Source of the DNA: a virus
Lineage: Duplodnaviria; Caudoviricetes
Reading direction: 5' to 3' (one strand)
DNA length: 54,595 nucleotides
IMG/VR virus record: IMGVR_UViG_3300027872_000007
Span: 1-54,595 of that record
The notes under the pieces were generated by a model. That model was not told the DNA's origin. It did no database searches and saw only the letters and a list, made by a program, of their open reading frames with translations. Both the position numbers and the translations under genes were made by a program. Below are positions 21,058 to 53,530 of the stretch, piece after piece; within the stretch, counting starts at the first letter, position 1, and each line of letters starts with the position of its first letter.

Positions 21058-21725
21058 GTCAAGCTCACCGTCCTGGCCGCTTCCTTGATCGGGCTGTAAT
21101 CAGCTCTCCATTGCCGTCTCAGCTCCAACTTCCTGGATCCCAAAAACTCGCTGTAGGTTTTCTTCCATACTTCGATCTCGCCCTGATCGGACTTCAAGAA
21201 CTCCTCGCTCGCGACCAAGGCCGCGTACAGCAACAGGTCGCCACAGTTCGTACCGAGCCAGGTCGTTTGCGTTGCGGGGGCCAATGATATTGGAGACTGG
21301 ATCTGACGCAACTCGAAGCCATGGGTCAATATAGGTGCCGGCGCAACCCAAATCTCGGTCTCGGTAAACTCAGCCCAATAGATCGGCTCTGCCGTCTGAG
21401 TCACATCGGGTTCAAAGTCCAGGCAAAATTCGTAAGTCCGGCGTTGCAGGAAACGCCTCAGCCCTGCTCCACCGACATCGCGTATGTGCAATGACCTGGT
21501 GCCTTGCCAGGTCGCCGGTTTGATCGGCTGGATAAATACCGCGGCTGTCAACGCACCTGTTTCCACTCGATCGAAGATCTCGAAATTGAGATCCGTGGTC
21601 AGCCGGCTTTCGCCCAGCTTGACCAAGGTCGGCAAATCGGTGATGTACTCGGCGCTCCCTTCCTCCAGTACCACCTGAAGCTCGGCTATGAGCTGATCGT
21701 AAGTAAACGAAATGGATGAACTCAT
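21054..21725 (-). CDS. Head-tail adaptor / tail tubular-like protein
   Basis: Start MSSSISFTYDQL at an ATGA overlap. TTWLGTNCGDLLLYAALV..FLK motif. Confidence 0.7.
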   Translation of the reverse strand: MSSSISFTYDQLIAELQVVLEEGSAEYITDLPTLVKLGESRLTTDLNFEIFDRVETGALTAAVFIQPIKPATWQGTRSLHIRDVGGAGLRRFLQRRTYEFCLDFEPDVTQTAEPIYWAEFTETEIWVAPAPILTHGFELRQIQSPISLAPATQTTWLGTNCGDLLLYAALVASEEFLKSDQGEIEVWKKTYSEFLGSRKLELRRQWRADYSPIKEAARTVSLT

Positions 21726-24076
21726 GACAAATAATCCCAGTCCTGAAAGCCAACGGGCTTCGTGAATGCGAAAGGCGCTTTCATAGTCCACCGCACCTTA
21801 AAGCCTTTATTGTTGCAGTTTACCGACCCAACGTAGGCAGGAATGGGTGCGCCTGTGGTCGTATTAAGGAAGTCTCCTATGAGCGTCTCGACCCTGGCAG
21901 GTGTACCGTTCCTGGACCATGTTACCTCACCAGTAACCAGATCAAGGGCGATGCCAATGACATCTCCCGTTGTATAGGCCAATAAGCCGTTTGTCGTAAT
22001 GCCATTGTGATGCGTTTGCCCATCGGCCATGTACGAAGCGATAAATGGTCGTTCGCCGGCTTCATCGCCTGGATCTGATGCGGCATTGGATTGACCGCCT
22101 GAAATGTGTGCATTGAAAGTGCCAACGTAAACTCCGAGAGTAATCGCATTTGGCGTACCGAACGACGCGCCAACAGTAAATTCGCAATAGTACTTGCCGG
22201 TCGCGCCAGTAGCGTCTCCGGCTGGAAACGCCAGACGACCCATCATGTGTCCGACCGACGAGTTGCCTCCTTGAAATGGCATCTCTGGATAATCGTTGCC
22301 AGATCCAAAATGATTGTCATCAGGGAAAACGTGAGCATACATCTGCTCCTGATGTCGGATTAGCTCTGGCGCCGTAATGATGTTGCCACACAATTCTACT
22401 GTCATGCCTTTAATGGGAAGGCCGCCCCAAGCTCTGGCAGGATTGTTATTCAGACGCATCAAAGTCCTCGGCAAGAAACCAGGTGGAACAGTCGGCGGCG
22501 GCACCGCAAATCCAAGAGACGGAATGAATGGCGGAACGAAATCACCTTTGCTGAGTGTTGCTATGTTGTAAGTGAAGGTCCTCACTGAAAGCGATGAATC
22601 ATAGATCAATGAGGCTAAAGTGGTGTCGTTATCCGAAGGAGAAGCGAACCAGATCCTGTACGTGCCAGAGTTCGCTGGCGTCAGAAAGAAAAAGCTATTG
22701 GCCGAATCATTGTTAGCAAATTCCAAGGATACACAATGGAAAACTTCATTCCAGCCAACGCCTTGATTAGTTACCTGGTCAATAATCGGAAGTGAGGCGG
22801 TCGTTTCTCCCCTGAAGAACTGTCCGTTAATCCCAGGTGATGCCAGCTCCTCCCAACCAATAAACCATGCCTGCTCATCAACAACGTCCCAATGGACAGC
22901 CAAGCAGTACGTCTCCCCAACTTCAAGCGTGACATCTTTGAAGCAACCGTGTGGCCCACCAGTTATGTCACCGTCATCAATGACAACGGCATAATGAATA
23001 CCATTCAAGACCGGATCCAAACTACTACTGCCACTGGTTGACCAAGTTGCAAAGAGATCGTTGGCAGTATCTGGCAATAAGTTCTCGCACAGCGACACTG
23101 CACCTGGGTTGTAAAACGCCGCATATAGCCATCCAGACTTTCCGCTGCCGCTGTTTTCATCAATCTGCATATTTGTGACAACATCTTGCGTCGGCGTCTT
23201 GCGCGTAATGACCGGATCGCCGGCAGTCGGCCCATCATGAAAAGTCACAATTTCCAGCACCGAACTATTGGGGCTTGAGATTTGTGGCGCACCCATCAAA
23301 GCAACAAAGTCAACATTGGCAGTTATATCGTCATCGATTCCTGGATCGCTCCACGATAAATTCTGAAAGGGACAGGCCAGATTCAAGTTCTGAACTACCC
23401 ACCAAAGCACGTACCACCGGACGTTTGTCGCGTTGTTTGATGTCAAAGCAAAGATGGTCGCATCTACAATATTCTCCCGCGGAAACCACCAAAGCGAGCC
23501 GGATCTGACTGAATCGTTATAGCCCTTGCTTGTCACATGATTAGAAATAATGCAGCGAAGATCTGGTCCTGAACTGTCTAGCTCCGCGTTAGTGGTAATT
23601 GAGATCATGTGCACAATCGCTGAGCAGCCAACGTCAAGACTGCCTGTCAGATCCAGGTTGAACGTCAAACTGTTATCGACGATCTCGAAGCCTGAATCCT
23701 TGACACGCACAGCACCAGACTCAATCACTGGCGTAATGTTGGCCAGCTCATAACCGAACGAGAGCCCGGCGCTTCCTGCACCACCAAGAGGAAGACCGAA
23801 TCCTCCACCAGGAATAGGATCCAGTCCAGGTGCGCCACCGAGTTCAAGGAGAGTGCCAATCTGGTCGCGCTCAGGAGCTGGTCGGTACAGCGCAGTCGGA
23901 TCCCTGACGCTGGGCAATGATTCCTGCGGATGCTTGGGCTCGTACCATTCAGGATCGACAATCAGGTTCGGATAATAGCCGTCCGCAATCATATCTCGGA
24001 GCAGCATCTTGCGTCCCGAACGGGCACACTCTCCGAGAGCCCACTTTCCCTTGGCGTATGCTGCCCCGATCGCCAC
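21722..24076 (-). CDS. Structural protein: conserved Cys-containing N-terminal head-tail domain fused to a long extension ending in a SPRY/B30.2-like domain
   Basis: N-terminus AKGKWALGECARSG..EPKHPQ..DPTALYRPAPE. C-terminus GKYYCEFTV..YTTGDVIGIALDLVTGEVTWSRNG..PVGFQDW. Confidence 0.7.
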   Translation of the reverse strand: MAIGAAYAKGKWALGECARSGRKMLLRDMIADGYYPNLIVDPEWYEPKHPQESLPSVRDPTALYRPAPERDQIGTLLELGGAPGLDPIPGGGFGLPLGGAGSAGLSFGYELANITPVIESGAVRVKDSGFEIVDNSLTFNLDLTGSLDVGCSAIVHMISITTNAELDSSGPDLRCIISNHVTSKGYNDSVRSGSLWWFPRENIVDATIFALTSNNATNVRWYVLWWVVQNLNLACPFQNLSWSDPGIDDDITANVDFVALMGAPQISSPNSSVLEIVTFHDGPTAGDPVITRKTPTQDVVTNMQIDENSGSGKSGWLYAAFYNPGAVSLCENLLPDTANDLFATWSTSGSSSLDPVLNGIHYAVVIDDGDITGGPHGCFKDVTLEVGETYCLAVHWDVVDEQAWFIGWEELASPGINGQFFRGETTASLPIIDQVTNQGVGWNEVFHCVSLEFANNDSANSFFFLTPANSGTYRIWFASPSDNDTTLASLIYDSSLSVRTFTYNIATLSKGDFVPPFIPSLGFAVPPPTVPPGFLPRTLMRLNNNPARAWGGLPIKGMTVELCGNIITAPELIRHQEQMYAHVFPDDNHFGSGNDYPEMPFQGGNSSVGHMMGRLAFPAGDATGATGKYYCEFTVGASFGTPNAITLGVYVGTFNAHISGGQSNAASDPGDEAGERPFIASYMADGQTHHNGITTNGLLAYTTGDVIGIALDLVTGEVTWSRNGTPARVETLIGDFLNTTTGAPIPAYVGSVNCNNKGFKVRWTMKAPFAFTKPVGFQDWDYLS

Positions 24077-27188: not shown

Positions 27189-28100
27189 CTACGCGCCACC
27201 TGGCGAGCCGTAAGCACCGCGCCAGTCGGACCAGCCGAAGCTGTACCGCTCGCGAGCCTTGTAGCGAAGATTGCCGGTCTCGAAGTCGCCCTCGATACCA
27301 CGCGAGATCTTCTTACGAAGCATGTGCTTGAGCCCATCAGGACAGTCCGTCTTGAGAGTCCACTGGTCGGGATCCGTCAGGCGGTGATTCACGCAGAATC
27401 CGTCGCCCACGGTGCCGAGAGTGTAGATGGCGCTGATGTCGTTATCGCCAGTGTTCGTGCGATACGGTGACATCAAGATCCGCGTTGCCACGAATTGCAA
27501 CTCCGTTGGGAGAATTAGCTTCGTGATCTGCGCTGCGATCGGAATGCCACGGTCGTCATCGAACTCTGAGATGTCGATCGCTGCCTGTTCCAGTGATGCC
27601 TCTGCAAGGTCGGCTGCTGTCGCCAGGGTATTCGCCTGGACACCGCCGCCGAACTGCGGATGGCTTGCTGAGAACAACGGTACACCGTCGCCGCCAAGAA
27701 AGAGGGCGTCGAAGCCGTTGTTGACAATATCAGCACCCTTAACTTCTTTGGTGTGCTGATGTGAACGTGCAAGGGCACGAGCATACTTGTTACCCAATGA
27801 CCCATAGAGTCCGTCTTCCTCGGCTTCCTCAGTGATAGCGAACGCCAGAGCGATCGTCTCATGAGTGTACCGAGCAACGTAACTCTCCGCGCCCTGGTCG
27901 TATGCAACGCCTTCACCTTCGGGCTTGACTGGTGCACCTGCGAACCCGGCGAGCAACACGTCTTCCTCGAATGCTTTCATCGATCGCTCGATGTCGAAGA
28001 TTTCGCGCCACTCCTCTGGATACCGCTTGTACTCCATGCCGAAGACGGCGTTTAAGCCTTCTTGCAGTTGCTTGCGAAAGTCGCTTCGATTCATTGCCAT
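27189..28100 (-). CDS. Major capsid protein (HK97 fold, Mu gpT-like family)
   Basis: MAMNRSDFRKQLQEGLNAVFG, KPEGEGVAYD, ARYTHETIALAFAITEEA.ED, GGDGVPLFSASHP, GDFETGNLRYKARERYSFGWSDWRGAYGS. Confidence 0.92.
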   Translation of the reverse strand: MAMNRSDFRKQLQEGLNAVFGMEYKRYPEEWREIFDIERSMKAFEEDVLLAGFAGAPVKPEGEGVAYDQGAESYVARYTHETIALAFAITEEAEEDGLYGSLGNKYARALARSHQHTKEVKGADIVNNGFDALFLGGDGVPLFSASHPQFGGGVQANTLATAADLAEASLEQAAIDISEFDDDRGIPIAAQITKLILPTELQFVATRILMSPYRTNTGDNDISAIYTLGTVGDGFCVNHRLTDPDQWTLKTDCPDGLKHMLRKKISRGIEGDFETGNLRYKARERYSFGWSDWRGAYGSPGGA

Positions 28101-30415: not shown

Positions 30416-30443
30416 ATAATACTCCTTGCAACCCTCCAGTCAA
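30416..30443 (-). promoter_or_regulatory. Candidate sigma70 promoter for the scaffold-capsid operon
   Basis: TTGACT-16nt-TATTAT upstream of the scaffold RBS. Confidence 0.45.
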
Positions 30444-30859
30444 AGAGACATGCAATCGAACGCTTCGGGCGTTTCCGTCACACAAAGAAGTTGCGTATCG
30501 GAAATGACCACCCAAAGGGTGCCATCCTGCGTCCGAAACTTCTCGCCGTCATGCTTTCCAAACTGCACCCAATCGCCAACGACGCATCCGTGCGCCTGCA
30601 TCAACTTCAATTGCGATCGGGTAACCGCTTGAAAACACAACGGTCCCATGTCCCTAACCATGCCAACGTAAGTACTGAACTCCCTTTGCTCCAGATACTC
30701 ATCCGGCATCTCGATACCACCAGCAGACATCTTTGGTGGCTCCGGGATCTGCACCGCGATGCGCCACAAATCGATCTTCCCTGGGTAGTTCTTTTGTACA
30801 AACGTGTCCAGCAGTGTTGCTGGCGCCTGCGCATCTTGCGCCTCAGCTTCGCTATTCAC
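30440..30859 (-). CDS. groES: GroES-like co-chaperonin
   Basis: WRIAV..KMSAGGIEMPD..VGMVRDMGP..VGDWVQFGKHDG..ISDTQLL. Likely GTG start at 30859. Confidence 0.8.
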   Translation of the reverse strand: MNSEAEAQDAQAPATLLDTFVQKNYPGKIDLWRIAVQIPEPPKMSAGGIEMPDEYLEQREFSTYVGMVRDMGPLCFQAVTRSQLKLMQAHGCVVGDWVQFGKHDGEKFRTQDGTLWVVISDTQLLCVTETPEAFDCMSL

Positions 30860-31052
30860 CTGTTTCCTCCTCTCCTTCAACCTGCTCAAGAAACTCGCGA
30901 GTAATCTCCATGATCCAGCGAAGTTCGGCGTTCCTGCCGACCAACTTCATGTACTGATCATGCGGCACACCTTTGTCCATGTTGGCGTGATTCTCCGCGA
31001 GACGTTCCTTGGCTCGATTGAGGACGAGTTCTGCAATCCTAAGTGCAGACAT
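30852..31052 (-). CDS. Small helical protein upstream of GroES
   Basis: G..HDQYMKLVG..AEL pattern in a conserved position. Confidence 0.65.
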   Translation of the reverse strand: MSALRIAELVLNRAKERLAENHANMDKGVPHDQYMKLVGRNAELRWIMEITREFLEQVEGEEETGE

Positions 31053-31668: not shown

Positions 31669-31804
31669 GTTTCTTCCTCGCTTTCCGACGCTTCTCACGA
31701 CGATCCTTCTCCACGGCTTCGATCTCATGCGCCGTTTTGCGGATCTGCTTGCGCACCTTCTCTGCCGGCGATGGCTTCGGTGCGTCAGTCTTTTTGTCAG
31801 CCAT
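31649..31804 (-). CDS. Small basic protein (51 aa, not in ORF track)
   Basis: MADKKTDAPKPSPAEKVRKQIRK...; ATG overlaps the portal stop. Confidence 0.5.
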   Translation of the reverse strand: MADKKTDAPKPSPAEKVRKQIRKTAHEIEAVEKDRREKRRKARKKLGTGES

Positions 31805-34290
31805 TACTTTTTCCTCTTGCGCTGTTTGCTGGTGCTGCTTTTCGGTGCGCTCACTGGCCCCTTTCCGAACGTGGCTTGAGCATGAGCTTTCTTGTCCAGG
31901 CGGCGAACTTCGGCTCTCGATTCTTTGTCCTTGCGTTTTTGCTCGGCATCGGACTCCTTGTCGAGCCGCTTCTTCCCGGCATCGGATTCTTCGTCTTTCC
32001 GATCGATGCCAGCTTCTGTCTCAGCTCTACCACGCTCGATCTTGCCAATGGTCTCCAGGTCAGCCTCGTCTTCGAGGCGCTGTTGCTCGTCCTGCTCGGC
32101 CTGTTCTTCAGGCGTCTTCGCAGGCGGTGGCGGTGGTCGCAGCTTCTTGGCCACGGCCTGACTGATCAATTGCTCAAGCTCAGGTGGAAGGTCCTCGTTT
32201 TCACTTGGATCGTCCAGGTTAATGTATGGGAGTTGCGTACCCAGCTCGGCCTCGACTTGCTGCCGATACAGATACGCTTTGTGTTCCATGACGTGCGCCT
32301 GAATCACCGGCTCCAGGTTCGCTACCAGGTCCGGGTTCTCCGCGGCCTGGGTCTCTGCAAAATTCATGTGCACAGCGACGTGCGCTTGATGATCCTGAAG
32401 GGGATACACGGTCGCCGCGGCGCCGGTCATGAAGCCCATGTTCTCGCTCACTGGATCCAGCGGTGCATCGCTCTCCTCCGGCATGATCTGATCGACATCC
32501 GGAATACGAAGGGCTTCGAGCATGCGTCGATGCGCAATCTTTTTCTGCTTCTTCGGATACAGCTCTGGAGCCGCGGTGATCAGTTCCAGGATTGCCTGGT
32601 TCTGCGCGATGCGCTGCGTTGATGACCAGATGTTCGGATCCGATACCGGGATGATGTCCACGCGGCCATCGAAATCCTGTTTCAGGATCTTGCGCTCCTC
32701 GCCCTGGACCTCGTAGGGATACTCGTCCACGTCCATGAACTCGTAGTTCAGCGTGGCCATCATCTTGAACTCTTGCCGCGCCGAGACGTGCATGCGCTTG
32801 TGGATGCCGCTGAACACCTTCGAGCCCTGTTCTATGAGCGCCAGAGTCGTGCCAACGGGCCCGGTGTTCGAGGCATCACCGATCATGTTCTCAGTGGTGG
32901 TGGCAAAGCGCCGGCCTTCCTTGACCAACGTCTCAACAAGGGTAGCGAGAGCTGTCGATGGCTCTTTCACCGGCAGGTTGAAGAACGCCTTCTCCAACTC
33001 GTCGGCAGACATATCGACATCGATCCACTCGCCCGGAGTGAAACGTATCTCCCCGGCAACCTTGGCTTCCTTGGATTTGAATCCACCCTGTAGGTTTGCC
33101 ACCGAGGCACTATCAAGCAGGGCACGAATGCCACCACTGACTGCCTTCGCAAGTGAGCCAATTATGTGTAGAAGCCCAAAACCGTAAAAGCCAAGGCCGG
33201 GGAGATACTTGTAGTGGGTGAACCAGATGCGCTTCTTCATCAGCTCGTCGTCGTGCTTCCAGTTGCGACGAACTGCCAGGACCTCGCGAGACTCAGCCTC
33301 GACCGTGACGATGTACGGTGGCGCTATGTCGGAGTTTTCGTCCCATGGCATGTGGTAATCGATGTGGTATTCGAGGATCGTGTAGATCGTGTCATCGTAA
33401 TGTTGCTGCGGCGAACGATCGTCGGCCACGTCCTCCATGTCGTACCGGGAAAAGCTGGTGTTCTTATCGACGATGATCTGCGGTGTCGGCACTAACCGTG
33501 CATCCTCGATGAATGATCCCGCCTCCTGGGCCCGATAAACATCATTCTCCGGCATTTCGTACTTGTGACAATACCGCGGCGCGTTCGCAAGAGTTCGCGC
33601 ATGGTAGGGAACAATAAAGTCCTCTGCGGTCACAAAGCGTGATGTCGTCATGCCGGTGATCGGGTCGATGTAGACTTTCTTGAAAGCCGAACCTGATAAG
33701 GGAAGGTAGAAAAGCATCTGGTCCGTTGACCAGTAATACTCCTCATCGGCTTCCGTGAGCTGGTAGTTCATGTAGTCAGCGAGTCGCTCACCCTGCTCTA
33801 CCTTCTCGTCGGTCGCCTCGCCCATGATGTAAGGCTTTACCGGGCCCGAAGGCGGGAAGAACTCCTCAATCGCTCGCGCCTGGAACTGCGTGGTGGCTTC
33901 AGCGATGAGTGGATGCTGGACCGTGGCCGCACCCTTGAACGGTACATCGGATGCTGGCTCGTCCGTCAGGCCCATAAGCCTGAGTCCATCAGCCAGCCGG
34001 TTGAAGTGTTCTTCGCGAACCTGCTCATCGATCTCGTAGTACTCGATCAGCTCATCCGCGATGGCCATGCGTTCTTGAGCAGACAGTTCCTCGGCTAGAT
34101 TGTCGTTCCAACCGTCAGGCGATGCTTCGTCATGATCGATGTCCGCGTATTCAGCGATCTCACCTTTCGGAATCACTGAAATGGTTCCGTCATCGTTGTG
34201 GCGAATGACGTTCTTTTCAGTGTACTGCTCGGCCTCCTTGAAGGTCGGCATCGTCTTCATTGTCGAAAGCAGATCTGCTCTAGCTGCCAT
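31804..34290 (-). CDS. Portal protein
   Basis: PFKGAATVQHPLIAEATTQFQARA, YMNYQL, LPLSGSAFKKVY, GLGFYGFGLLH, PVGTTLALIEQG, DFDGRVDIIPVSDPN. Confidence 0.9.
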   Translation of the reverse strand: MAARADLLSTMKTMPTFKEAEQYTEKNVIRHNDDGTISVIPKGEIAEYADIDHDEASPDGWNDNLAEELSAQERMAIADELIEYYEIDEQVREEHFNRLADGLRLMGLTDEPASDVPFKGAATVQHPLIAEATTQFQARAIEEFFPPSGPVKPYIMGEATDEKVEQGERLADYMNYQLTEADEEYYWSTDQMLFYLPLSGSAFKKVYIDPITGMTTSRFVTAEDFIVPYHARTLANAPRYCHKYEMPENDVYRAQEAGSFIEDARLVPTPQIIVDKNTSFSRYDMEDVADDRSPQQHYDDTIYTILEYHIDYHMPWDENSDIAPPYIVTVEAESREVLAVRRNWKHDDELMKKRIWFTHYKYLPGLGFYGFGLLHIIGSLAKAVSGGIRALLDSASVANLQGGFKSKEAKVAGEIRFTPGEWIDVDMSADELEKAFFNLPVKEPSTALATLVETLVKEGRRFATTTENMIGDASNTGPVGTTLALIEQGSKVFSGIHKRMHVSARQEFKMMATLNYEFMDVDEYPYEVQGEERKILKQDFDGRVDIIPVSDPNIWSSTQRIAQNQAILELITAAPELYPKKQKKIAHRRMLEALRIPDVDQIMPEESDAPLDPVSENMGFMTGAAATVYPLQDHQAHVAVHMNFAETQAAENPDLVANLEPVIQAHVMEHKAYLYRQQVEAELGTQLPYINLDDPSENEDLPPELEQLISQAVAKKLRPPPPPAKTPEEQAEQDEQQRLEDEADLETIGKIERGRAETEAGIDRKDEESDAGKKRLDKESDAEQKRKDKESRAEVRRLDKKAHAQATFGKGPVSAPKSSTSKQRKRKK

Positions 34291-34350
34291 ACAACCTCCC
34301 ACGACCGACGATCGTCGGTAATGGTCTTCGTGGGCGGCGAAGATATTCGG

Positions 34351-36107: not shown

Positions 36108-36371
36108 TCAGTCTGGGTCGCCGTGGAAGTCTGCGAAGTATCGTTTGTTGAGCCAGCTATTGAACCATCGCTGCATCCACAGGATGTCGCGCTTCTCCAT
36201 GTCCGACCAAGCACAGTCGAGAGTGTAACTGTCGTCTTTCGCATCCCGCTTATTGGTGAGGATAATCACGTCATCAATCTCGCCACGCTCTGCTTGTTGA
36301 AGCGCATGGCGCAGCGTTCGCACGGCGTCATACTCACCGACTGGCAATTCTTTCACGTTGTCATGCGCCAT
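36108..36371 (-). CDS. Hypothetical protein
   Basis: MAHDNVKELP..TLRHALQQAERGEIDDVIIL; overlaps the TerL end. Confidence 0.6.
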   Translation of the reverse strand: MAHDNVKELPVGEYDAVRTLRHALQQAERGEIDDVIILTNKRDAKDDSYTLDCAWSDMEKRDILWMQRWFNSWLNKRYFADFHGDPD

Positions 36372-37953
36372 AGAACTTCCTTGGCTGGCTGAACAGCGCC
36401 AGCTCATCGTCCTTCTCATCGTCAGGTAAGTCGATCAAGCCCATGCGCCGGATATACGCGAGCAGCATCACCACGCAGTCCACCAGGTCGTCATTCTCAC
36501 CGACCGGGAACGTCGCGCACTGATTGATAACTTCGTAGGCCCAGTTCCTGGGGATGTACCACAGCCGGCCATCCTTCAAGATCTGCGCGACCATGTGAGC
36601 CCGGAACACTTTGTCCTTGGACCCAGGCTTCACTCCGCGTATCGAGAGCCCTGCTTTACGCAGCTCCTGAATCAACGAATGACCGCTGGCCTTCTTCTCG
36701 ATCAGCGTCCAGTCAGGATGCCACTCGACATTGTGTCCGATCGCTTCGGTCTTGAGATCTGGGAACTCCACTTTGTCGTTGAACCGCTCCAGCATCAGAG
36801 CATGAACAGCCATGTCCTGTTCTCGACCGCTCTCCGAATACTCGAACAGACCAGCAGTGATCCTCGCGGAGCAGTCGTTCTCCTCGTCGGTCTCGAAAGC
36901 CGTGTCGTACACGGAGATGACCTCAGTGAACTCCGGCATTGGCATTGGCTTGCCGGCGTACTGATGGTCCTGCGGATAGCACCACTGCTTCCACCACTTC
37001 TTCTTCAAGATCAGGCCACCACCGGACGTTGGATCTTGGTTCATCTGGGCAGAGTAGTCCCTGACTGACATGGCCTTGCGCTCAGCCTTGACCTCCTCCT
37101 GGCCAAAGCGTTGCTCGTTCAGCAATTCGCCCTTCTTCTCCCTTGGGTCCTCGAATATCGCACCTTCCTTGGTCTTATGTCCCTTGCCGGCATTGAAGAA
37201 CGTGATGCAGTGCCTGGCTGGATCGTATTCCATCGGCAGCATCAGCACTTCCCATCGCTCGTCCTCGGTCATGAGGATGTGGCCGAACAGGTCAGCATCG
37301 TGCGACCGCTGCCCGATCAGGACCTTCTGCCCAGTCGTCGGATCATTGAGTCGCGATCGCAGTGAGTTGTCCCAGGCTGACAGTGTGCTGTAACGAATCA
37401 GGTCGGAGTACACGTCCGACATATTGTGCGGGTCATCGATGATGATCTTATCGCCGCCTTCGCCAGTGACCTTGCCCAGGATCGAGCCTGAGATGCGATG
37501 ACCACCGTGATTGTTGACGTAGCGATTCTTGCGATTGTCCGATGGATCCAGGTAGAACGTGTCCGCGTACCGTTCTCGAAACCAGGCCGACTCGATCAGC
37601 CGGCGAGACTTGACTGCATCTCGGATGGCCAGCTCCTGAGCGTAAGAGGCGAACAGGAACTGCACTCCTGGATCCAGTAGCCACTCCCACACCGGCCACA
37701 ACACACTCGCGGTCAGACTCTTGGTCTGCCGCGGTGGGATATTGATCATCAAATTGCGAATGTCACCGAACGTGACATAGGCGAGGTGGTCACAGATAGC
37801 GTCCAGGTGCCAGTTGTTCTTGAACTGCTTCGGCTCTACGACCGGCCAGGCAACGGCAACGAACTCTCTCAGATCTCTCCGATAGAACTCGGCTTGGGCT
37901 TGCGTGAGTTGCTTGGATACCGCTTCTTGAACGCTGAGTGCATCCGCGACCAC
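36361..37953 (-). CDS. terL: Terminase large subunit
   Basis: Walker A INIPPRQTKS, Walker B IIIDDP, nuclease residues YDTA, IEKKASG and NDDLVD. Confidence 0.95.
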   Translation of the reverse strand: MVADALSVQEAVSKQLTQAQAEFYRRDLREFVAVAWPVVEPKQFKNNWHLDAICDHLAYVTFGDIRNLMINIPPRQTKSLTASVLWPVWEWLLDPGVQFLFASYAQELAIRDAVKSRRLIESAWFRERYADTFYLDPSDNRKNRYVNNHGGHRISGSILGKVTGEGGDKIIIDDPHNMSDVYSDLIRYSTLSAWDNSLRSRLNDPTTGQKVLIGQRSHDADLFGHILMTEDERWEVLMLPMEYDPARHCITFFNAGKGHKTKEGAIFEDPREKKGELLNEQRFGQEEVKAERKAMSVRDYSAQMNQDPTSGGGLILKKKWWKQWCYPQDHQYAGKPMPMPEFTEVISVYDTAFETDEENDCSARITAGLFEYSESGREQDMAVHALMLERFNDKVEFPDLKTEAIGHNVEWHPDWTLIEKKASGHSLIQELRKAGLSIRGVKPGSKDKVFRAHMVAQILKDGRLWYIPRNWAYEVINQCATFPVGENDDLVDCVVMLLAYIRRMGLIDLPDDEKDDELALFSQPRKFYGA

Positions 37954-42817: not shown

Positions 42818-43291
42818 TTAAACGCCTGGATTCCAATAAGTGTTGCGATTGTCTCCTGGCAATAGATCATCGACAGTCCATTCACTGTCGTCGAAGGTTT
42901 CGTCCTTGCTCAGTATCAAGCCGAACTCTCGCGCCAAATCCGCGAGCTTTTGCTGACCATAGAACTTTTCGTCATCAGGTCCGATGGTCAATCGTCTGGG
43001 TATGTTACCTACATCCAGGATAGCCTTGGTGGCGTCCTGAAGTGCCGCCTCGCAGATGTCTGCCGGCGTATTCGGCTCGATGATATTGCCGATACCGGGT
43101 TTAGCCGTCTTCATCTCCACACCAAATTCTGCTAGTTGGCCATCGATCTGCTTAGTGAACATATTCATCGCTCCAGCAAAAAACGATTTCCAAGCACAGT
43201 CGTTGATTTTTTCAGCTACACGCTTCAGGCGATTGAATCCGCCAACTACATTTTGTCGGGCAATTAAGACATCGACATCAAGTTTGCTCAC
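42818..43291 (-). CDS. Protein with an MCP-derived C-terminal half
   Basis: Probable GTG start (GTGA overlap). PADICEAALQDA ~ MCP AADLAEASLEQA; FDDSEWTV ~ LTDPDQWTL; YWNPGV ~ YGSPGGA. Confidence 0.6.
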   Translation of the reverse strand: MSKLDVDVLIARQNVVGGFNRLKRVAEKINDCAWKSFFAGAMNMFTKQIDGQLAEFGVEMKTAKPGIGNIIEPNTPADICEAALQDATKAILDVGNIPRRLTIGPDDEKFYGQQKLADLAREFGLILSKDETFDDSEWTVDDLLPGDNRNTYWNPGV

Positions 43292-43386
43292 AGCCTTTTC
43301 CTTGTGATCCACGCCATCACTGCATAGCCAACAATAATTCCCAGCAGCAACGCAATTATGCTCACGCACAAGGTCGGCATGATCAT
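43288..43386 (-). CDS. 32-aa transmembrane peptide (not in ORF track)
   Basis: MIMPTLCVSIIALLLGIIVGYAVMAWITRKRL; coupled at both ends. Confidence 0.55.
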   Translation of the reverse strand: MIMPTLCVSIIALLLGIIVGYAVMAWITRKRL

Positions 43387-43571
43387 GGCATCTTCCGATA
43401 GCAGTATCTGGCAATCTGATTGATGATGTTGTCACGACCGAGAAGTGTTGCTGGCCGATTCTTTGGCTTCGTTAGCTCGTAGATGTCATCGATGATCTTC
43501 CTGGTGGCTTTCAGCTCGACACGAAGCTCACCCTCGGACATCTTGTCCACGTTTTTAGTGAAAGTGATCAC
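43383..43571 (-). CDS. Hypothetical protein
   Basis: AAGGAGG SD and a GTGA overlap. Confidence 0.6.
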   Translation of the reverse strand: MITFTKNVDKMSEGELRVELKATRKIIDDIYELTKPKNRPATLLGRDNIINQIARYCYRKMP

Positions 43572-43846
43572 GGCGCCTCCTTGAGAATATCGAGATCCAT
43601 AACGTGAGTCAGCATCTCAATGTCTTCCTTGCGGCAATAGATGACCTGATTGCCCTTGTCAAGGTACAGCTTGCCCGGATCCAATATGCCAACAGTACGC
43701 CAAGCCCTCAAATGCAGGCGTCTTAGAAAATCGTACCATTTGGGTGTGATTCTTACTTTGGGCTTCACCGGCACCAATCTGTAACCGGCGAACATATTCT
43801 TCGTCATCGTCTCTGTCCCTTTAGCTCCAGTCCTATTCTCAATCAT
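43568..43846 (-). CDS. Hypothetical protein
   Basis: Coupled ORF; start could be 43807. Confidence 0.5.
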   Translation of the reverse strand: MIENRTGAKGTETMTKNMFAGYRLVPVKPKVRITPKWYDFLRRLHLRAWRTVGILDPGKLYLDKGNQVIYCRKEDIEMLTHVMDLDILKEAP

Positions 43847-44153
43847 CGATGTCGATCCACAACTCCTCCATATTGTCTGGCTCCAGCTCCTCGTACACGT
43901 CACCGAAGGCTTTGTTCAGGCCCTCCTTCAACGCCTTTGGGAACTCAGCCCTAAGCCCTGGATCATACGGAATGCTCGCACCCTCCGGCTTGGCCTGTAC
44001 CAGGCTGAAGCCTCCGGTCAGGTCATGGTGCGCGGCATCGTGTAGCAGAGTTGGATGCTTCATGCTTCTCAGCATCACGCCATCGTCGTTTTTCGGAACC
44101 ACCGCCATCGCAGCAGCGCCAATGAAAGCCTGAATGAATCCGCGTCTGTTCAT
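43839..44153 (-). CDS. Twin-arginine-signal protein made of permuted MCP fragments
   Basis: MNRRGFIQ; DGVMLRSMKHP; GGFSLVQAKPEGASIPYD; RAEFPKALKEGLNKAFGDVY. Confidence 0.75.
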   Translation of the reverse strand: MNRRGFIQAFIGAAAMAVVPKNDDGVMLRSMKHPTLLHDAAHHDLTGGFSLVQAKPEGASIPYDPGLRAEFPKALKEGLNKAFGDVYEELEPDNMEELWIDIDD

Positions 44154-44356
44154 GCCGGCGTTCCATACATGGCTCGGTAATCGATCCACTGAACGTCCAG
44201 GCTGGAATCCATGTTGACCTTAAACTTCATCGCAACGATGTTGGGATCAGCCAATGGACTGAGATCCAGCCTTGGCATCGCAGTCGCCATTCGCATGCCG
44301 ATCGCTACCGTTGCTACTGCGCCGACAAACGCCTTGAGAAATGCTCGTCTTTTCAT
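44150..44356 (-). CDS. Twin-arginine-signal peptide ending in an MCP C-terminus mimic
   Basis: MKRRAFLK..MKFKV..WIDYRAMYGTPA. Confidence 0.7.
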   Translation of the reverse strand: MKRRAFLKAFVGAVATVAIGMRMATAMPRLDLSPLADPNIVAMKFKVNMDSSLDVQWIDYRAMYGTPA

Positions 44357-44577
44357 AGACTCAAAAGCCAAAAACCAAATGCAGCAATGGGAGCCATAAT
44401 GAGAAGCGTTCCAACAAACTGGGCGCCCCAATCTGTTTCCATTGGAGGTGAAGCATATCGAGGCTCATGAACAACTGTGTCTCCATACACGCTACGCCAA
44501 TCACTCCAATGACTGACGAAGAAGACGGCGTTTAAGCCTTCTTGCAACTGTTTGCGCGAGAAGTTCTCTTTGCTCAT
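44353..44577 (-). CDS. Membrane-anchored fusion of the MCP N- and C-terminal peptides
   Basis: RKQLQEGLNAVF + WSDWRSVYG + C-terminal TM helix. Confidence 0.8.
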   Translation of the reverse strand: MSKENFSRKQLQEGLNAVFFVSHWSDWRSVYGDTVVHEPRYASPPMETDWGAQFVGTLLIMAPIAAFGFWLLSL

Positions 44578-44738
44578 TGCTTTCTTCTCATATCACCGCG
44601 GCCCAATGCCTCCGAGTTCTTCATCTGGAGTCTGTGGCTTTCCCGTTTCGCTTCATTGAACGTGCCGTGGAATTTCGATTCGCCGGTCTCCAGCTCCTCA
44701 ATGAGACGACCACGGCGCTCCCACTTCTGTTCAAGCAT
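44574..44738 (-). CDS. Small charged protein (54 aa, not in ORF track)
   Basis: MLEQKWERRGRLIEELETG...; AAGGAG upstream and an ATGA overlap downstream. Confidence 0.5.
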   Translation of the reverse strand: MLEQKWERRGRLIEELETGESKFHGTFNEAKRESHRLQMKNSEALGRGDMRRKQ

Positions 44739-45231
44739 GCTGGAACATGGCTCCTTTCGACATATAAATCACTGGCATAGCAATCGTATCGTCCATCTCC
44801 TGCATGCCCATTAAAGCACCATGCTCCATTTTATTGATCGACAAAGCCCCCTGACTAATGCTGATGATCTGCGCTGCTTCCAGCTCATCGAAGAACTCAT
44901 CGTTCATGCCGAACTCCTCGATTACTTGATGAGCGACATATCGAGCCCCACGCTCAACATTTCTGAATGCCTGCGTAGCTTTCCGAAGAAGGTCTTTGGG
45001 ATTGATAGGCGTCCATGGATCTGAGTCGAAAATGGCAGCTCTCTCGAAGATCTGAACGTTCCAGGGCTCAGCAGTATCGATGCCATAGTAGTATTTATCG
45101 GTAGCCATCTCGTAACGCCAGGTGCCATCAGCAAGCACCTCCGGAAACTTTGGAGCCATACGAGAGGCAATAGCAACCGTCGCCACGGCTGCCGCCAATC
45201 CATGAAAGAACGCTCTCCTGGTAAGTCGCAC
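44731..45231 (-). CDS. Twin-arginine-signal protein with MCP-like fragments
   Basis: GTG start with SD; LTRRAFFH; GTWRYEMATDKYYYG; ARYVAHQVIEEFGMNDE. Confidence 0.65.
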   Translation of the reverse strand: MRLTRRAFFHGLAAAVATVAIASRMAPKFPEVLADGTWRYEMATDKYYYGIDTAEPWNVQIFERAAIFDSDPWTPINPKDLLRKATQAFRNVERGARYVAHQVIEEFGMNDEFFDELEAAQIISISQGALSINKMEHGALMGMQEMDDTIAMPVIYMSKGAMFQHA

Positions 45232-45235
45232 TGTC

Positions 45236-45586
45236 CTACTCCTCTTTTTCCTCCACTTTAACGCCCTCGGCTCTTTGGATTGCCTTCTCAACGTCCGCAG
45301 GGCGCTCTTGCAGAATCTGAGCTGGCGTTCCACCTCCGGGCTGCCGAACCGTTTCGTAATCCGGTTTCGGTTTAGGCGCTTCGGTCTTTCGATCGCGACG
45401 ACGCTTGGCGGTTTCTTCCTGGCCGCGCTCTCGGTGTTCCTCGATGAGCTTTTTACGCTCAGCGTCTGATGCTTTGGTTTCCAGTTTTCGCTTGCGCGCC
45501 TTCTCGCGATCAGTATCTGGTGCCGGCGTACTCATTGGTGGGCCGAATGATCGTGGTCGTTCCTCTTTGTTCGCTCTACTGGCCAT
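45236..45586 (-). CDS. Charged low-complexity protein
   Basis: Operon-contiguous ORF. Confidence 0.6.
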   Translation of the reverse strand: MASRANKEERPRSFGPPMSTPAPDTDREKARKRKLETKASDAERKKLIEEHRERGQEETAKRRRDRKTEAPKPKPDYETVRQPGGGTPAQILQERPADVEKAIQRAEGVKVEEKEE

Positions 45587-45588
45587 TG

Positions 45589-45822
45589 CTAAATCCCCGC
45601 TTTTCGTTCCTGCTCGTCAAGATACTTCTGACGTTCAGTTACCGGCTTGGGTGCTTTGGTCTTCCGATCTTCCGGCTTCGTCGCTTCAGGCGCTTCTGGC
45701 TTTTCGTCGCCGTACTGTTCCTTGTACCGCTTGCGCCTGGCCTCACGCTTCTTGGCCACTTTACACGAGATAGAATCCGGATCTTCGCGACAAATCTCTT
45801 TTGCTGATCGGCTGGTCGGCAT
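45589..45822 (-). CDS. Charged small protein
   Basis: Operon-contiguous ORF. Confidence 0.55.
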   Translation of the reverse strand: MPTSRSAKEICREDPDSISCKVAKKREARRKRYKEQYGDEKPEAPEATKPEDRKTKAPKPVTERQKYLDEQERKAGI

Positions 45823-46152: not shown

Positions 46153-46465
46153 GAGACTCTAATGCCATTAGCGTTACATCGGCAAGTTTCCCGAACTCAA
46201 AGTCGTTGCAGCAAATACTGGCCGCAACCATCGACGAGTGCGAACCTGTTGGATGAATCACAACCAAACACATTGCAGACACAGTACCTTTCTCGATTCC
46301 TTTCAGGGCGTTTTGCAGTTGCCGCATAGCATCACGTTTCGCCTGAACAGGAAAGTAGCCATCCACCTTGGGCTCTGGCTTGTTCTTGTCGAGTTCCCTC
46401 TCCATGCGCTTAATTTCCAGGCTCGCTACACCATCTTTATCAGGCAGTATGATTCTACTACGCAC
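46112..46465 (-). CDS. Hypothetical protein
   Basis: LQNALKGIEKGTVSAMCLVV, weakly similar to 36108-36371; start uncertain. Confidence 0.5.
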   Translation of the reverse strand: MRSRIILPDKDGVASLEIKRMERELDKNKPEPKVDGYFPVQAKRDAMRQLQNALKGIEKGTVSAMCLVVIHPTGSHSSMVAASICCNDFEFGKLADVTLMALESRDPDPGDPDDEAG

Positions 46466-46832
46466 TTTCTTTCGACTCCTCGGTTGGCTTATCCAGCCCA
46501 TGGACAATCGACGGTGGCGGCGTCGGCTTCGGAAGGCCAGCACGTTGCGCTGACTTCTCAGCGCGTCCTTGCTTCTCGGCTTCGCGATCCTCGGCAAACT
46601 TCACATCTCTAGTTGTGACCTTTCGCTCGATGGTTTCCGCGTCATAACCAATCGCATCGGCAAATTCTTTCATCGTCGATGCCTCAAATTCTGGTTTCAT
46701 CGCCATAACCTTTTCCATCATGGCGTTTCGCTGCTTACGTTCATCATCGTTGGCCGGCACCCCCCGATAGGTCATGCCGAACACAATGTTCACCGACAGT
46801 TCCACGTCGCCGCAATCGATTTTAAGTGACAT
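46458..46832 (-). CDS. Hypothetical protein
   Basis: GGGAGAG SD before MSLKIDCG. Confidence 0.6.
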   Translation of the reverse strand: MSLKIDCGDVELSVNIVFGMTYRGVPANDDERKQRNAMMEKVMAMKPEFEASTMKEFADAIGYDAETIERKVTTRDVKFAEDREAEKQGRAEKSAQRAGLPKPTPPPSIVHGLDKPTEESKESA

Positions 46833-46876
46833 GATCAGGCTCTCCCAGTAATTTGTAATCGCTGTCCCGAAGCATC

Positions 46877-47134
46877 TTATAATACATCCTTTAAGGCTCG
46901 ACACTTCGCTTCGTGTGCCTGCCGGCATTCGTTCTTGATGTGCTGTTCGCAACCAGGACACATCTCACATTTCTTACACGATCCCTGCTTCGCGAACGGC
47001 GTAGTCAGATAGCAAGTGCAAACATCGGGAAAGTTTTCCTCGACTCGTTTGCGGCGCCACGCTATCCATCGATCATGCGCTTCCTTCGGCGTCGGGCGTC
47101 TTGTGGAAACCGCAGAACCCGCAGAACTTTTCAT
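46877..47134 (-). CDS. Cys-rich hypothetical protein
   Basis: CTC..CKKCEMCPGC..H..C; start uncertain. Confidence 0.45.
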   Translation of the reverse strand: MKSSAGSAVSTRRPTPKEAHDRWIAWRRKRVEENFPDVCTCYLTTPFAKQGSCKKCEMCPGCEQHIKNECRQAHEAKCRALKDVL

Positions 47135-51395: not shown

Positions 51396-51745
51396 GCAGA
51401 ACTTGGACTGAACACAAACTCACTGACAGCATGCTGAAACAATTAGCAGCCGCATCAAACCGCGAGAATGGCAGTCTGTATCCAGGCATTGGTTATGGTG
51501 CCCCTAGCTCGCGAGCGGCGTTGTTCGTTCGCGGCCTCGCTAATAACGCAGCAGGCGAGTGCAAAGCATATCCAGGTCACAGAGACGACCGGATCAACGA
51601 CACTGGCCGAAAGGCACTCGAAGACACTCGAATGTTTGGTACTTATGGTTGTGCAACTGACTGTAAGTGCGACCGATGTAAAGAACTTCGAAAACAGGCT
51701 GACGAAGAAAGATTGGCACAAACCCGAAAAGGGGTGCCGAAATGA
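51392..51745 (+). CDS. Hypothetical protein with C-terminal Cys cluster
   Basis: ATGA-coupled; CATDCKCDRC. Confidence 0.6.
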   Translation: MSRTWTEHKLTDSMLKQLAAASNRENGSLYPGIGYGAPSSRAALFVRGLANNAAGECKAYPGHRDDRINDTGRKALEDTRMFGTYGCATDCKCDRCKELRKQADEERLAQTRKGVPK

Positions 51746-52647
51746 AACAAACATTCATCAACAAGAATTTCAAAGACGAGTCGTTGGTCATCATCAGGCT
51801 GGCAAACGAAATCATCGACGAGTACCGCTCTCAGGGCTTCCTCCTGACGCTGCGGCAGCTCTACTACCAGTTCGTCGCCAGAGGGTGGCTGCCGAACACG
51901 CAGCAGTCCTACAAGCGTCTGGGCTCGATCATCAACGATGCCAGGCTTGCCGGCATGGTGGACTGGAGCGCGATCGAGGACCGCACCAGGAACGTGAAGT
52001 CGAACTACCACTACACCGGCCCACGTCAAGCCGTCCAGGATGCGCTCGACACCTACGAGATTGATATGTGGGCGAACCAGCCTGAGCGTGTCGAGGTGTG
52101 GATTGAAAAGGAAGCCCTGTCAGGCGTCATCGCAAATGTCTGCGACGAAATGGACGTGCCCTACTTCGCTTGCCGCGGCTACGTTTCGCAGTCGGAACAG
52201 TGGAGAGCCTATCGTCGCGCACAGTACTACGGACACGAGAAAAGCCAGACCACTGTCATTCTCCATTTTGGAGATCACGACCCATCTGGCATCGACATGA
52301 CTCGCGACAACCAGGACCGTTTGGATATGTTCTTGGAAGATGATGAGTATGTAGAAAACGTCACGGTAGAACGCCTGGCGCTGAACATGGATCAGGTAGA
52401 AGAATTTAATCCGCCGCCGAATCCTGCCAAGATAACCGACAGCAGATTCGCCGGCTACGCCGCCCAGTACGGTGACGAGAGCTGGGAGCTAGACGCGCTG
52501 GAACCGAAGGTAATGACAGACCTGATCCGCCAGCATGTGCGACAGCACCGTGACCCGGCACTCTGGTCGGACAAAGAGGAGGAGCGGGACGACCATAAGC
52601 TCCAGCTCCAGGACATCATCGACGATTTAGGAGAAGACGATGAATAG
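51742..52647 (+). CDS. TopoVI-A/Spo11-like wHTH-TOPRIM protein
   Basis: LTLRQLYYQ, VEVWIEKEAL, RGY.S, HFGDHDPSG, WELDAL. Confidence 0.75.
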   Translation: MKQTFINKNFKDESLVIIRLANEIIDEYRSQGFLLTLRQLYYQFVARGWLPNTQQSYKRLGSIINDARLAGMVDWSAIEDRTRNVKSNYHYTGPRQAVQDALDTYEIDMWANQPERVEVWIEKEALSGVIANVCDEMDVPYFACRGYVSQSEQWRAYRRAQYYGHEKSQTTVILHFGDHDPSGIDMTRDNQDRLDMFLEDDEYVENVTVERLALNMDQVEEFNPPPNPAKITDSRFAGYAAQYGDESWELDALEPKVMTDLIRQHVRQHRDPALWSDKEEERDDHKLQLQDIIDDLGEDDE

Positions 52648-53098: not shown

Positions 53099-53530
53099 TT
53101 ACATTAGCACAGTCGGCTCCAGCTCGACAACCACCATGCCGTCAGTAACGATGTTGCTCGTTCGCCAGACGTGATGCTCCACGATCTGGTAGTCATCCAT
53201 AAATACGCCGGCTTTTTGCAGCGCATCCTCCAGCATCTTGAACAGATTCGACGTGTCCCGCTTCCTGCGGTCAGGCGGGAAGGTCCACATACGCATCACC
53301 AGAGGGCAGCTCCAATTCATGGCCGCCTTGTCCCGCATCACAATGGACTGGACGTTACGATGAAATTCCTTGGCCTGAGATGTCGGATACGCCTGGACGA
53401 ATTGCTTCGGCGCCCTGCCAGCAACCCGGTAGCCAGTGTAATGATTCGCGGTCGGCGGCCACGGTAACTCCAGTCTCAATCCAGATGGTTTACTACCGGA
53501 ACCGATGACTTCCAATTCTCCCTGCTCCAT
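53099..53530 (-). CDS. rusA: RusA-family Holliday junction resolvase
   Basis: LELPWPPTANHY..PPDRRKRDTSNLFKMLEDALQKAGVFMDDYQI. Confidence 0.88.
   Translation of the reverse strand: MEQGELEVIGSGSKPSGLRLELPWPPTANHYTGYRVAGRAPKQFVQAYPTSQAKEFHRNVQSIVMRDKAAMNWSCPLVMRMWTFPPDRRKRDTSNLFKMLEDALQKAGVFMDDYQIVEHHVWRTSNIVTDGMVVVELEPTVLM

Follow-up and report, generated by a model that had tools for sequence, protein, structure and literature searches.

The IMG/VR viral record IMGVR_UViG_3300027872_000007, a linear and ~78% complete stretch of 54,595 bases that was analysed as a whole and is called the window throughout, carries in its accessory region, adjoining early-type genes, a cluster of five small open reading frames (ORFs; o1 to o5), four of which resemble pieces of the phage's own major capsid protein (MCP). 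We consider it very probable that the cluster consists of real, translationally coupled genes and that its accessory proteins go back to partial copies of this HK97-fold MCP. That these small proteins act by mimicry of capsid elements is a more tentative reading, somewhat short of even odds, and description and mimicry blended together form the best overall explanation that we can offer, with a probability of roughly 0.45. An original prediction, made from the letters of the DNA alone, had described five intact, operon-embedded ORFs that are all built from MCP segments. All five are indeed present on the minus strand, and ATGA stop/start overlaps join o4b (a small ORF that couples o5 to o4) to o4, o4 to o3 and o3 to o2; the likeness to the MCP proved solid for o2 and o4 and moderate for o3 and o1, and fell away for o5.

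These gradings rest on three comparisons. Each ORF was aligned to the MCP by the Smith-Waterman method with 500 shuffles of the same ORF as the control. A hidden Markov model (HMM) of the MCP family combined 136 diverse full-length MCPs with three cognate MCPs and that of the window; it was run on every stop-to-stop frame (3707 in all) in the window and in three related genomes, with shuffled frames reaching best E-values of 0.11 and 1.1. Finally, the ORFs or their families were compared with the MCP family by hhalign. The o2 protein scored 69 in the Smith-Waterman test against a shuffle maximum of 57 (reached by 0/500 shuffles), matched the MCP-family HMM with an E-value of 4.3e-5 and, as a family, aligned to the MCP family with a probability of 95.6% (E 1.1e-8; o2 45-64 = MCP 49-68). 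For o4 the score was 72 against a shuffle maximum of 47 (0/500), the HMM E-value 0.23 and the hhalign probability 44% (E 2.3e-4, at the C-terminal motif), and for o3 the score was 42 against a maximum of 41 (0/500), with a weak HMM E-value of 1.7 and an hhalign probability of 24% (E 8.2e-4) over 31 columns (o3 35-67 = MCP 270-300). The o1 score of 42 was reached by 11/500 shuffles and its HMM E-value was 9.2, and o1 together with its homolog in the related locus L009 aligned to the MCP family with a probability of 65.8% (E 5.7e-5) over 61 collinear columns (o1 57-118 = MCP 139-211). For o5, significant MCP similarity was not demonstrated by any of the three methods: its score of 32 was reached by 204/500 shuffles, the MCP-family HMM gave no match, and hhalign with the o5 family returned a probability of 0.7% (E 0.085). 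The small ORFs match the MCP in pieces of 10-60 residues only, often out of order, so that none is a full-length HK97 MCP, and no Pfam or PHROG MCP family was reported on them at E≤0.1.

The same likeness was seen when the accessory region was surveyed as a whole, using a set of 463 ORFs from the window and nine related loci. The window MCP gave 45 blastp matches in this region, compared with 5 in the reversed set and 5 in the shuffled set. When 54 window proteins were used as blastp queries against the 463 ORFs, the MCP gave 13 matches, in 13 small ORFs, and the other structural proteins of the window gave none, save 2 weak matches for a dubious ORF (21412-21753); the remaining matches were collinear orthologs, e.g., terminase. 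By this measure, the MCP is the sole structural protein of the window that is echoed in the accessory region. One further minus-strand ORF (46458-46961, 167 residues), with a counterpart resembling it in L009, weakly matched MCP 16-97 by blastp (26.9 bits); it was not recovered by the MCP-family HMM, and its likeness is probably due to chance.

The MCP itself is modelled well by AlphaFold2 (AF2), with a predicted local distance difference test score (pLDDT) of 94.1 and a predicted template modelling score (pTM) of 0.89. Foldseek with this model found HK97 (1ohg, E 3.2e-11) and many further capsids, a PDB sequence search with the MCP profile found Mu GpT-domain capsid proteins only (8rkc, E 2e-5), and 3638 representative relatives were recovered at E≤1e-3. 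When the MCP search was limited to shorter proteins it gave 518 matches, of which the best 120 are truncated genuine MCPs. Using the secondary structure of the AF2 model, we delimited an N-arm (residues 1-35), an E-loop (44-79, with its tip at 52-70), a P-domain strand (81-89), a spine helix (99-127), an A-domain helix (167-178) and C-terminal strands (278-299), names that follow general usage for HK97.

The HMM match of o2 consists of three sub-matches in the order 138-151, 52-69 and 6-30 (HMM positions). Its E-loop-like segment lies N-terminal to its N-arm-like segment, reversing the order in the MCP, in agreement with the permutation claimed at the outset. The E-loop of o2 is degenerate, which makes o2 a member of the Tat-A138-(degenerate E-loop)-Narm type within its family (Tat being a twin-arginine translocation signal). 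In o4, the N-arm motif shares 12/12 residues (RKQLQEGLNAVF) with the MCP, and here the likeness extends to the DNA: blastn finds an exact repeat of 26 nucleotides (28041-28066 in the MCP gene, 44521-44546 in o4), as had been predicted, within a stretch of 36 nucleotides of which 33/36 are identical. This stretch covers MCP codons 9-20 and o4 codons 8-19, and its 3 differences in 12 codons are all synonymous. The WSDWR motif of o4 is written in different codons from that of the MCP, including the other serine codon family; because these codons differ and the differences in the repeat are synonymous, the likeness of o4 to the MCP appears to be kept at the level of the protein. The ORF ends in a hydrophobic helix (residues 54-72; KD19 2.11). 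In L005 an ORF of 83 residues (4938-5189) has the MCP 279-299 motif (66.7% over 21 residues) followed by a C-terminus that reads as hydrophobic in its sequence; it is a positional analog of o4. A role of the fragments as silent cassettes, i.e., as donors of capsid variation, was considered and rejected, given that conservation of the MCP among these phages is 85-96%, that the fragments share only 30-50% identity with it and that the likeness is at the protein level and not the DNA level.

The copy of the C-terminal MCP strands in o3 ends at the C-terminus, as the strands do in the MCP. The signals of o3 and o5 are paralogous, with o3 residues 1-37 matching the o5 homolog of L009 at its start; the only match of o3 in relatives runs through this signal. 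In o1 we see a probable copy of MCP segment 139-211, in the A-domain, that has diverged. Its sequence shows no signal peptide, and it has a single homolog, in L009, at 38% identity. Neither o1 nor o4 has relatives in the viral_contigs set. The charged o4b protein has a homolog in L009 (tblastn, 63% identity across 54 residues) and no MCP similarity was seen in it. The o5 family is small, with 5 clusters among 5.8 billion proteins, and o5 homologs are found in L004, L009 and L031. In the window, o3 and o4 look like additions specific to its lineage, placed between genes that are direct neighbours in other relatives. In L005, L006 and L008 a homolog of o7 (window 45589-45822) is found close upstream, ~75-80 nucleotides from the o2 homolog, and in the window o6, o5, o4b, o4 and o3 separate o7 from o2; the site between o7 and o2 (window 44150-45586) appears to gain genes.

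In addition to the overlaps joining the genes, the GTG start of o5 is preceded by a GGAGG-type site, and the ATG of a hydrophobic 32-residue ORF upstream of o1 overlaps the stop of the ORF before it as ATGA. Selection was assessed from the ratio of nonsynonymous to synonymous substitution rates (dN/dS), which is 0.24-0.63 in 15 pairs of o2 orthologs (0.24-0.33 for o2 against its five orthologs) and 0.03-0.06 for the MCPs of the same phages. In the genome pair G001/G002 the dS is 0.31 for the o2 ortholog and the MCP alike, with dN/dS of 0.40 versus 0.029. On these ratios, the o2 family is under purifying but relaxed selection.

To define the o2 family more widely, a profile of eight o2 homologs was searched against 5.8 billion proteins at E≤0.01, giving 121 clusters; the counts that follow refer to the best 120 of these 121, which are 55-221 residues long. 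None of the 120 clusters examined carries a meaningful name. In 108/120 there is a high-scoring segment pair (HSP) to the window MCP of at least 24 bits, the best shuffled HSP having 23.1 bits, and 35/120 have at least two separate HSPs, with the order permuted in 34 of the 35. With the exception of one member, the HSPs lie within MCP residues 1-180. Expressed as motifs, a Tat signal occurs in 114 members, the E-loop tip in 109, DGVxLxSxxHP (MCP 138-148) in 64, the N-arm GLNxxF in 55, the spine motif LARSxxxTK in 41, LxEASLE (MCP 165-171) in 38, YTHxTx (MCP 78-83) in 37 and the C-terminal ERYxFGW in 1; shuffled family members almost never fit these patterns. Two or more MCP modules are present in 108 members, in an order unlike that of the MCP in 99 of them, and 21 architectures can be distinguished, chiefly Tat-A138-Eloop-A164-Narm (31), Tat-Eloop-Spine-B78 (22) and Tat-Eloop-Narm (11). 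As read from these patterns, the E-loop tip is almost always present, and the N-arm, the spine helix, the strand at 78-83 and the A-domain pieces 138-148 and 164-171 are optional. At the extremes of the family stand P0230 (221 residues), which has in order the spine helix, the C-terminal strands, the E-loop, the A-domain helix and MCP 240-265, and P0236, whose residues 5-82 correspond to a contiguous chunk of the MCP (48-128; 41% identity, E 3e-16). The best MCP matches of such contiguous-chunk members include the MCPs of the phage clade itself, which fits an old partial duplication of its own MCP gene. We infer that this partial duplication would have been followed by deletion, further duplication and reshuffling.

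The motif-bearing proteins also share candidate export signals. Both o2 (MNRRGFIQAF...) and o3 (MKRRAFLKAF...), as well as o5 (..TRRAFFHGL...), have RRxF[IL] followed by a hydrophobic stretch, and together with the C-terminal helix of o4 this bears out, as far as sequence can, the earlier claim of export or anchor features in four ORFs. The twin arginine is invariant in eight viral-contig homologs and at least 90% conserved in an alignment of 110 family sequences. The model TIGR01409 (TAT_signal_seq) matches 43/110 members at E≤0.1 (best 1.8e-4), and PF10518 on o2 stays under its cutoff (15.7 vs 22.7 bits). The N-terminal Tat consensus is recognisable in o2, o3, o5 and 114/120 family members, which would locate most of the MCP motifs to the membrane or the periplasm. 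Apart from these Tat-signal models, no NCBIfam model matched recurrently among the 110 members; o1-o5 matched neither a Pfam nor a PHROG family at E≤0.001, and the PHROGs that appeared at E 0.004-0.08 were weak and of unknown function.

Past the signal, o2 is predicted to be mostly disordered. Its AF2 model, made from the 110-sequence alignment, has a pLDDT of 61.8 and a pTM of 0.24, with order only in the signal helix and the N-arm-like helix and with no autonomous HK97 fold, and the Atlas model has a pLDDT of 0.45. The mature parts of the family are acidic (median net charge -7). The predicted disorder, the acidic mature parts and the many module orders suggest independent linear motifs and not one fold. 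A complex prediction of the MCP with o2 residues 21-104, run without controls, gave an ipSAE of 0.00 in two runs, a value that speaks neither for nor against binding. Covalent cross-linking of mimics to capsids was dropped as a candidate, as the invariant E-loop lysine could not be mapped onto the HK97 cross-link site. A histidine-rich segment of o2, LLHDAAHHD (residues 36-44), is missing from the MCP and invariant in the eight viral-contig homologs, with its HDAAHH core in 63/120 family members; from its composition, it could be a metal-binding site.

The original prediction had made its case depend on equivalents in related phages that evolve under constraint, and such equivalents exist, with the purifying selection described above. 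Homologs of o2 were found in nine viral contigs, three of which also carry a cognate MCP (96%, 86% and 85% identity to the window MCP), and in these three related genomes the MCP-family HMM found, beside the MCPs, five further small ORFs with E-values of 8.5e-13 to 1.5e-6. A scan for the twin-arginine pattern returned o2, o3, o5 and one spurious frame of 41 residues in the window, and two ORFs in the same region and on the same strand in each of the three relatives. One of the latter (G003:C1:17479-17820, plus strand, 113 residues) has a mature part that was not recovered by the MCP-family HMM, and with o5 it indicates that the locus also hosts Tat proteins without a detectable MCP-derived payload. 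With an MCP profile, the record of the window and those of five relatives each returned between one and three matches, the extra sub-MCP matches falling in the window, G002 and G003. In five cultured phages related through the wider MCP family (CRP-901 and HTVC023P included), whose complete records were searched, the profile matched the MCP only. Neither the o2 DNA region (blastn) nor the o2 protein (tblastn) has a match in 50,697 phage records, and of the 297 pattern matches of the o2-family alignment in GTDB genome contigs none was confirmed, so that no prophage or host came to light. Matches to o2 in the ESM Atlas, all under 0.9, are viral hypothetical clusters and Tat-bearing proteins, and serve as leads only. 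The o2 family comes from uncultured marine phages, and the related uncultured phages have 2-3 genes of this kind apiece.

In six relatives, a member with a Tat signal and the MCP spine helix immediately precedes the large terminase gene, where a small terminase is usually found (Table 1). A C-terminal tail, GARRSVG..GSPDR, is conserved in many members of this terminase-adjacent type and may be due to an overlapping signal ahead of the terminase gene.

In the mechanism that we prefer, the products would be acidic, largely unstructured 'beads on a string' that carry conserved surface or interface elements of the capsid and are shown at or beyond the inner membrane by a Tat signal or a membrane helix. 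There, the mimics would compete with the genuine MCP elements for a partner that recognises those elements. Our preferred candidates for this partner, which would be met in the periplasm, are a host envelope factor and some component of a related phage that superinfects the cell. The pattern of conservation is consistent with this mimicry. The majority residue of the small family equals the MCP consensus at 32/38 MCP positions conserved to at least 70%, compared with 21/64 variable positions, and the conservation of the two families is correlated (Spearman 0.31, p 6e-5, over 157 MCP positions each covered by at least 15 small-protein residues), a correlation inflated because the segments were found via their MCP similarity. 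Furthermore, the small proteins are often nearer to the MCP-family consensus than the window MCP is: ALARSMMQTKE of the small family is closer to the consensus LA.SM..TKE than ALARSHQHTKE of the window MCP. A more far-reaching version, which we regard as doubtful, holds that the clade repeatedly turns pieces of its capsid gene into new genes and exports disordered poly-motif capsid mimics, natural strings of conserved capsid epitopes, to the periplasm, where they would intercept a partner that normally reads these elements, such as internal virion proteins that a superinfecting relative ejects, or a capsid-binding host envelope factor.

Several points besides that inflation weigh against mimicry. 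The dN/dS of the o2 family is 5-14x that of the MCP, a sign of relaxed constraint, and the permuted order could come from tandem duplication and deletion without selection for independent motifs. The motif patterns were composed after inspecting the family, and their counts are hence descriptive. Export is read from sequence only, and the topology of o4 is ambiguous, the acidic flank before its C-terminal helix permitting both orientations. Lastly, we know of no tailed-phage capsid that enters the periplasm, and a periplasmic partner is not obvious. We nevertheless rank mimicry in the periplasm or at the membrane first, ahead of a periplasmic function unrelated to the capsid, then of cytoplasmic decoys and roles in assembly or lysis, and last of junk.

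The next-ranked explanation, which we think unlikely, is that MCP fragments served as raw material for Tat-exported periplasmic proteins (e.g., envelope modifiers or superinfection exclusion proteins) whose function has nothing to do with the capsid, the conserved motifs mirroring local secondary structure in their new context. It would account for the Tat signals in 114/120 members, which put the products away from capsid assembly, for the segment LLHDAAHHD, absent from the MCP yet invariant in eight homologs and retained as its core in 63/120 members, for the presence at the same locus of o5 and the G003 Tat ORF with no detectable MCP payload, and for a dN/dS far above that of the MCP. What it explains less well is that the residues kept are those that the MCP family keeps (32/38 conserved positions), that o2 is predicted to be disordered and that the 21 module orders and combinations are hard to square with a single new fold; moreover, o4 seems to have recently re-acquired or re-converted its N-arm motif, given 33/36 identical nucleotides with 3 synonymous differences.

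The original prediction had proposed decoys that titrate capsid-sensing immunity. In this reading, which we rate as improbable, host sensors of the capsid protein in the cytoplasm or at the membrane would be occupied and abortive infection averted. Sensing of the MCP by bacterial immunity is well documented, conserved MCP motifs are the targets that a sensor could least easily lose, the genes lie in the accessory region beside early-type genes and o4, if it is tail-anchored, could show MCP motifs to the cytoplasm. CapRel, Lit and PifA, the sensors named in that prediction, are however located in the cytoplasm, and periplasmic placement of the products, as the export signal on most members implies, fits poorly with decoys for such sensors; nor was any known anti-defence or superinfection-exclusion family matched in Pfam or PHROGs. 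The sensors Avs7 and Dsr1 bind the HK97 fold through contacts that include the A-domain, the P-domain and the E-loop, and a sensor of this type envelops the folded MCP by shape complementarity (bioRxiv 10.64898/2026.01.04.697583); a sensor so described engulfs a folded protein, whereas o2 is predicted to be disordered.

No better placed are roles in assembly or lysis, in which MCP interface mimics, tethered to the membrane or bound to the Tat receptor, would cap interfaces of co-infecting relatives in a dominant-negative manner, localise procapsid assembly or tie the timing of lysis to free MCP. The N-arm and the E-loop are classical inter-subunit elements of HK97-type capsids, and it is the E-loop (109/120) and N-arm (55/120) that count among the most retained modules. 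A member directly upstream of the large terminase gene, inside the packaging module, at six loci (L005-L008, L010 and L011) and small ORFs with a membrane helix in the cluster (o4 and the 32-residue ORF) also point this way. Against this, a cleavable export signal is an odd route to a cytoplasmic tether, and the phage's own MCP would be hit too. The poisoning of capsid assembly in the cytoplasm, another of the original proposals, likewise sits badly with a Tat signal in 114/120 members. Finally, non-functional recombination debris or spurious ORFs with leftover MCP-like stretches, as might be suspected from o4 without viral_contigs relatives, from o3 matched via its signal only and from noise-level HMM E-values of both, are very improbable in view of dN/dS below 1 in 15/15 o2-family pairs, the invariant twin arginine in eight viral-contig homologs, the consecutive ATGA overlaps, the 120 clusters from several sources and 45 matches in real ORFs versus 5 in reversed and 5 in shuffled ones.

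Table 1. Positions of the cluster genes, the motif source and other features; positions refer to the window unless a locus is named.
Feature	Position	Strand	Description
MCP gene	27189-28100	minus	303 aa, HK97 fold, Mu gpT-like; PF10124 E 3.5e-6; phrog_371 E 3.5e-17
GroES-like co-chaperonin gene	30440-30889	minus	phrog_3188, E 1.3e-6; between portal and scaffold-like genes
Portal gene	31804-34302	minus	
Large terminase gene	36361-37953	minus	
o1	42818-43291	minus	157 aa from GTG 43291 (frame open up to 43435)
Hydrophobic peptide ORF	43288-43386	minus	32 aa; between upstream gene (43383-43571) and o1
o2	43839-44153	minus	104 aa; predicted Tat signal, DGVxLxSxKHP (MCP 138-148-like), E-loop tip (MCP 49-68), N-arm (MCP 3-31)
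o3	44150-44356	minus	68 aa; predicted Tat signal, MCP C-terminal strands (MCP 270-300)
o4	44353-44577	minus	74 aa; N-arm motif, C-terminal motif (WSDWR.xYG), predicted C-terminal transmembrane helix
Stretch of 36 nucleotides in o4	44521-44556		33/36 identical to MCP 28041-28076 (26 exact)
o4b	44574-44738	minus	54 aa; small charged ORF coupling o5 to o4
o5	44731-45231	minus	166 aa; predicted Tat-signal protein
Terminase-adjacent members	L005:7787-8116, L006:9866-10462, L007:7268-7567, L008:5499-5771, L010:5668-6264, L011:1610-2206		

Elsewhere in the window, the tail fibre genes are on the minus strand, as are the terminase, portal, GroES-like and MCP genes. The nearest cultured phages by MCP (55-57% identity) come from marine and freshwater settings and include the Roseobacter phages CRP-901 and CRP-902 and the Pelagibacter phages HTVC023P and HTVC027P. 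The GroES co-chaperonin is given as part of the HTVC023P-type core genome (PMC9599517). HTVC023P-type podoviruses are like the window in their MCP and in the GroES-like gene, and CRP-901 and HTVC023P are unlike it in having no second MCP-profile match. DNA of the record was detected in three DNA runs, two from seawater and one from a marine-sediment metagenome (the latter with a small share), and in no RNA run among the runs listed. At the left end of the record, a single minus-strand frame is open throughout 6.3 kb (window 1-6300, >2099 codons) and exits the record; as read from this frame, the contig end truncates a giant gene here, and the plus-strand ORFs listed inside it look spurious. 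At the right end, a topoisomerase-like protein (51742-52647, plus strand; phrog_6247, E 1.8e-110) and a RusA-like resolvase (53099-53530, minus strand; phrog_34, E 9.5e-24) mark a replication and recombination module. No integrase was found among the 41 window proteins scanned.

Known systems share individual features with the cluster. The T4 vertex protein gp24, the capsid-size proteins Ccm of phage-inducible chromosomal islands (PICI) and the encapsulins are MCP paralogs or exapted HK97-fold shells and, like the window genes, descend from an HK97-fold capsid gene as separate genes with a new role; they keep the whole fold, are cytoplasmic and form shells, whereas the small proteins have motifs of 10-30 residues in varied number and order and an export signal, with o2 predicted to be unfolded. 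The Gol peptide of T4 gp23 is recognised by the Lit protease with EF-Tu and triggers a host defence, an example of a short linear MCP stretch sufficing for recognition by another protein. Gol, however, lies within the MCP itself and is not a separate gene, exported or multi-motif, in contrast to the small proteins, which form separate and putatively exported strings. The N-terminal M-x-RR-x-F-[IL] followed by an Ala/Gly/Val-rich stretch is like that of Tat substrates (TIGR01409/PF10518), but typical Tat substrates are folded, often cofactor-bearing enzymes, and o2-family proteins are short and acidic, with disorder predicted. T4 Imm and Sp, T5 Llp, Cor and P22 SieA are small envelope proteins of superinfection exclusion that are typically encoded in accessory regions, and the cluster proteins are likewise small, phage-encoded, apparently envelope-directed products of accessory-region genes; there is no sequence relationship between them (no Pfam or PHROG family match), and we know of none of the five that is capsid-derived. 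Arbitrium AimP is a short secreted pro-peptide encoded beside the gene for its cognate intracellular receptor, and no receptor-like gene for a pairing of this kind was recognised among the annotated neighbours, without a dedicated search. Full-text literature searching, judged by titles and abstract openings, found no published account of capsid-derived exported proteins or of a viral Tat-targeted capsid-derived family, in line with the earlier statement that no system like the cluster had been described.

No phage proteins are more conserved or more abundant than capsid proteins, which are also a main target of bacterial immune sensors. The family described here, now comprising 120 unannotated clusters in phages distantly related by their MCP to cultured marine podoviruses of the HTVC023P type, strips the capsid protein to its conserved motifs, reshuffles them and, to judge from its signals, sends them out of the cytoplasm. 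Here the birth of new genes out of pieces of an essential structural gene can, as is rare, be traced, with old members (the o2 family) side by side with apparently young ones (o3 and o4, the latter with its 33/36-nucleotide match), and if the poly-motif reading is true this birth would be visible as a process that still continues. If the mimicry is true, these capsid-mimicry accessory proteins would be a new class and would reveal an unrecognised capsid-recognising partner in the envelope and a new tactic in the conflict between phages and between phage and host.

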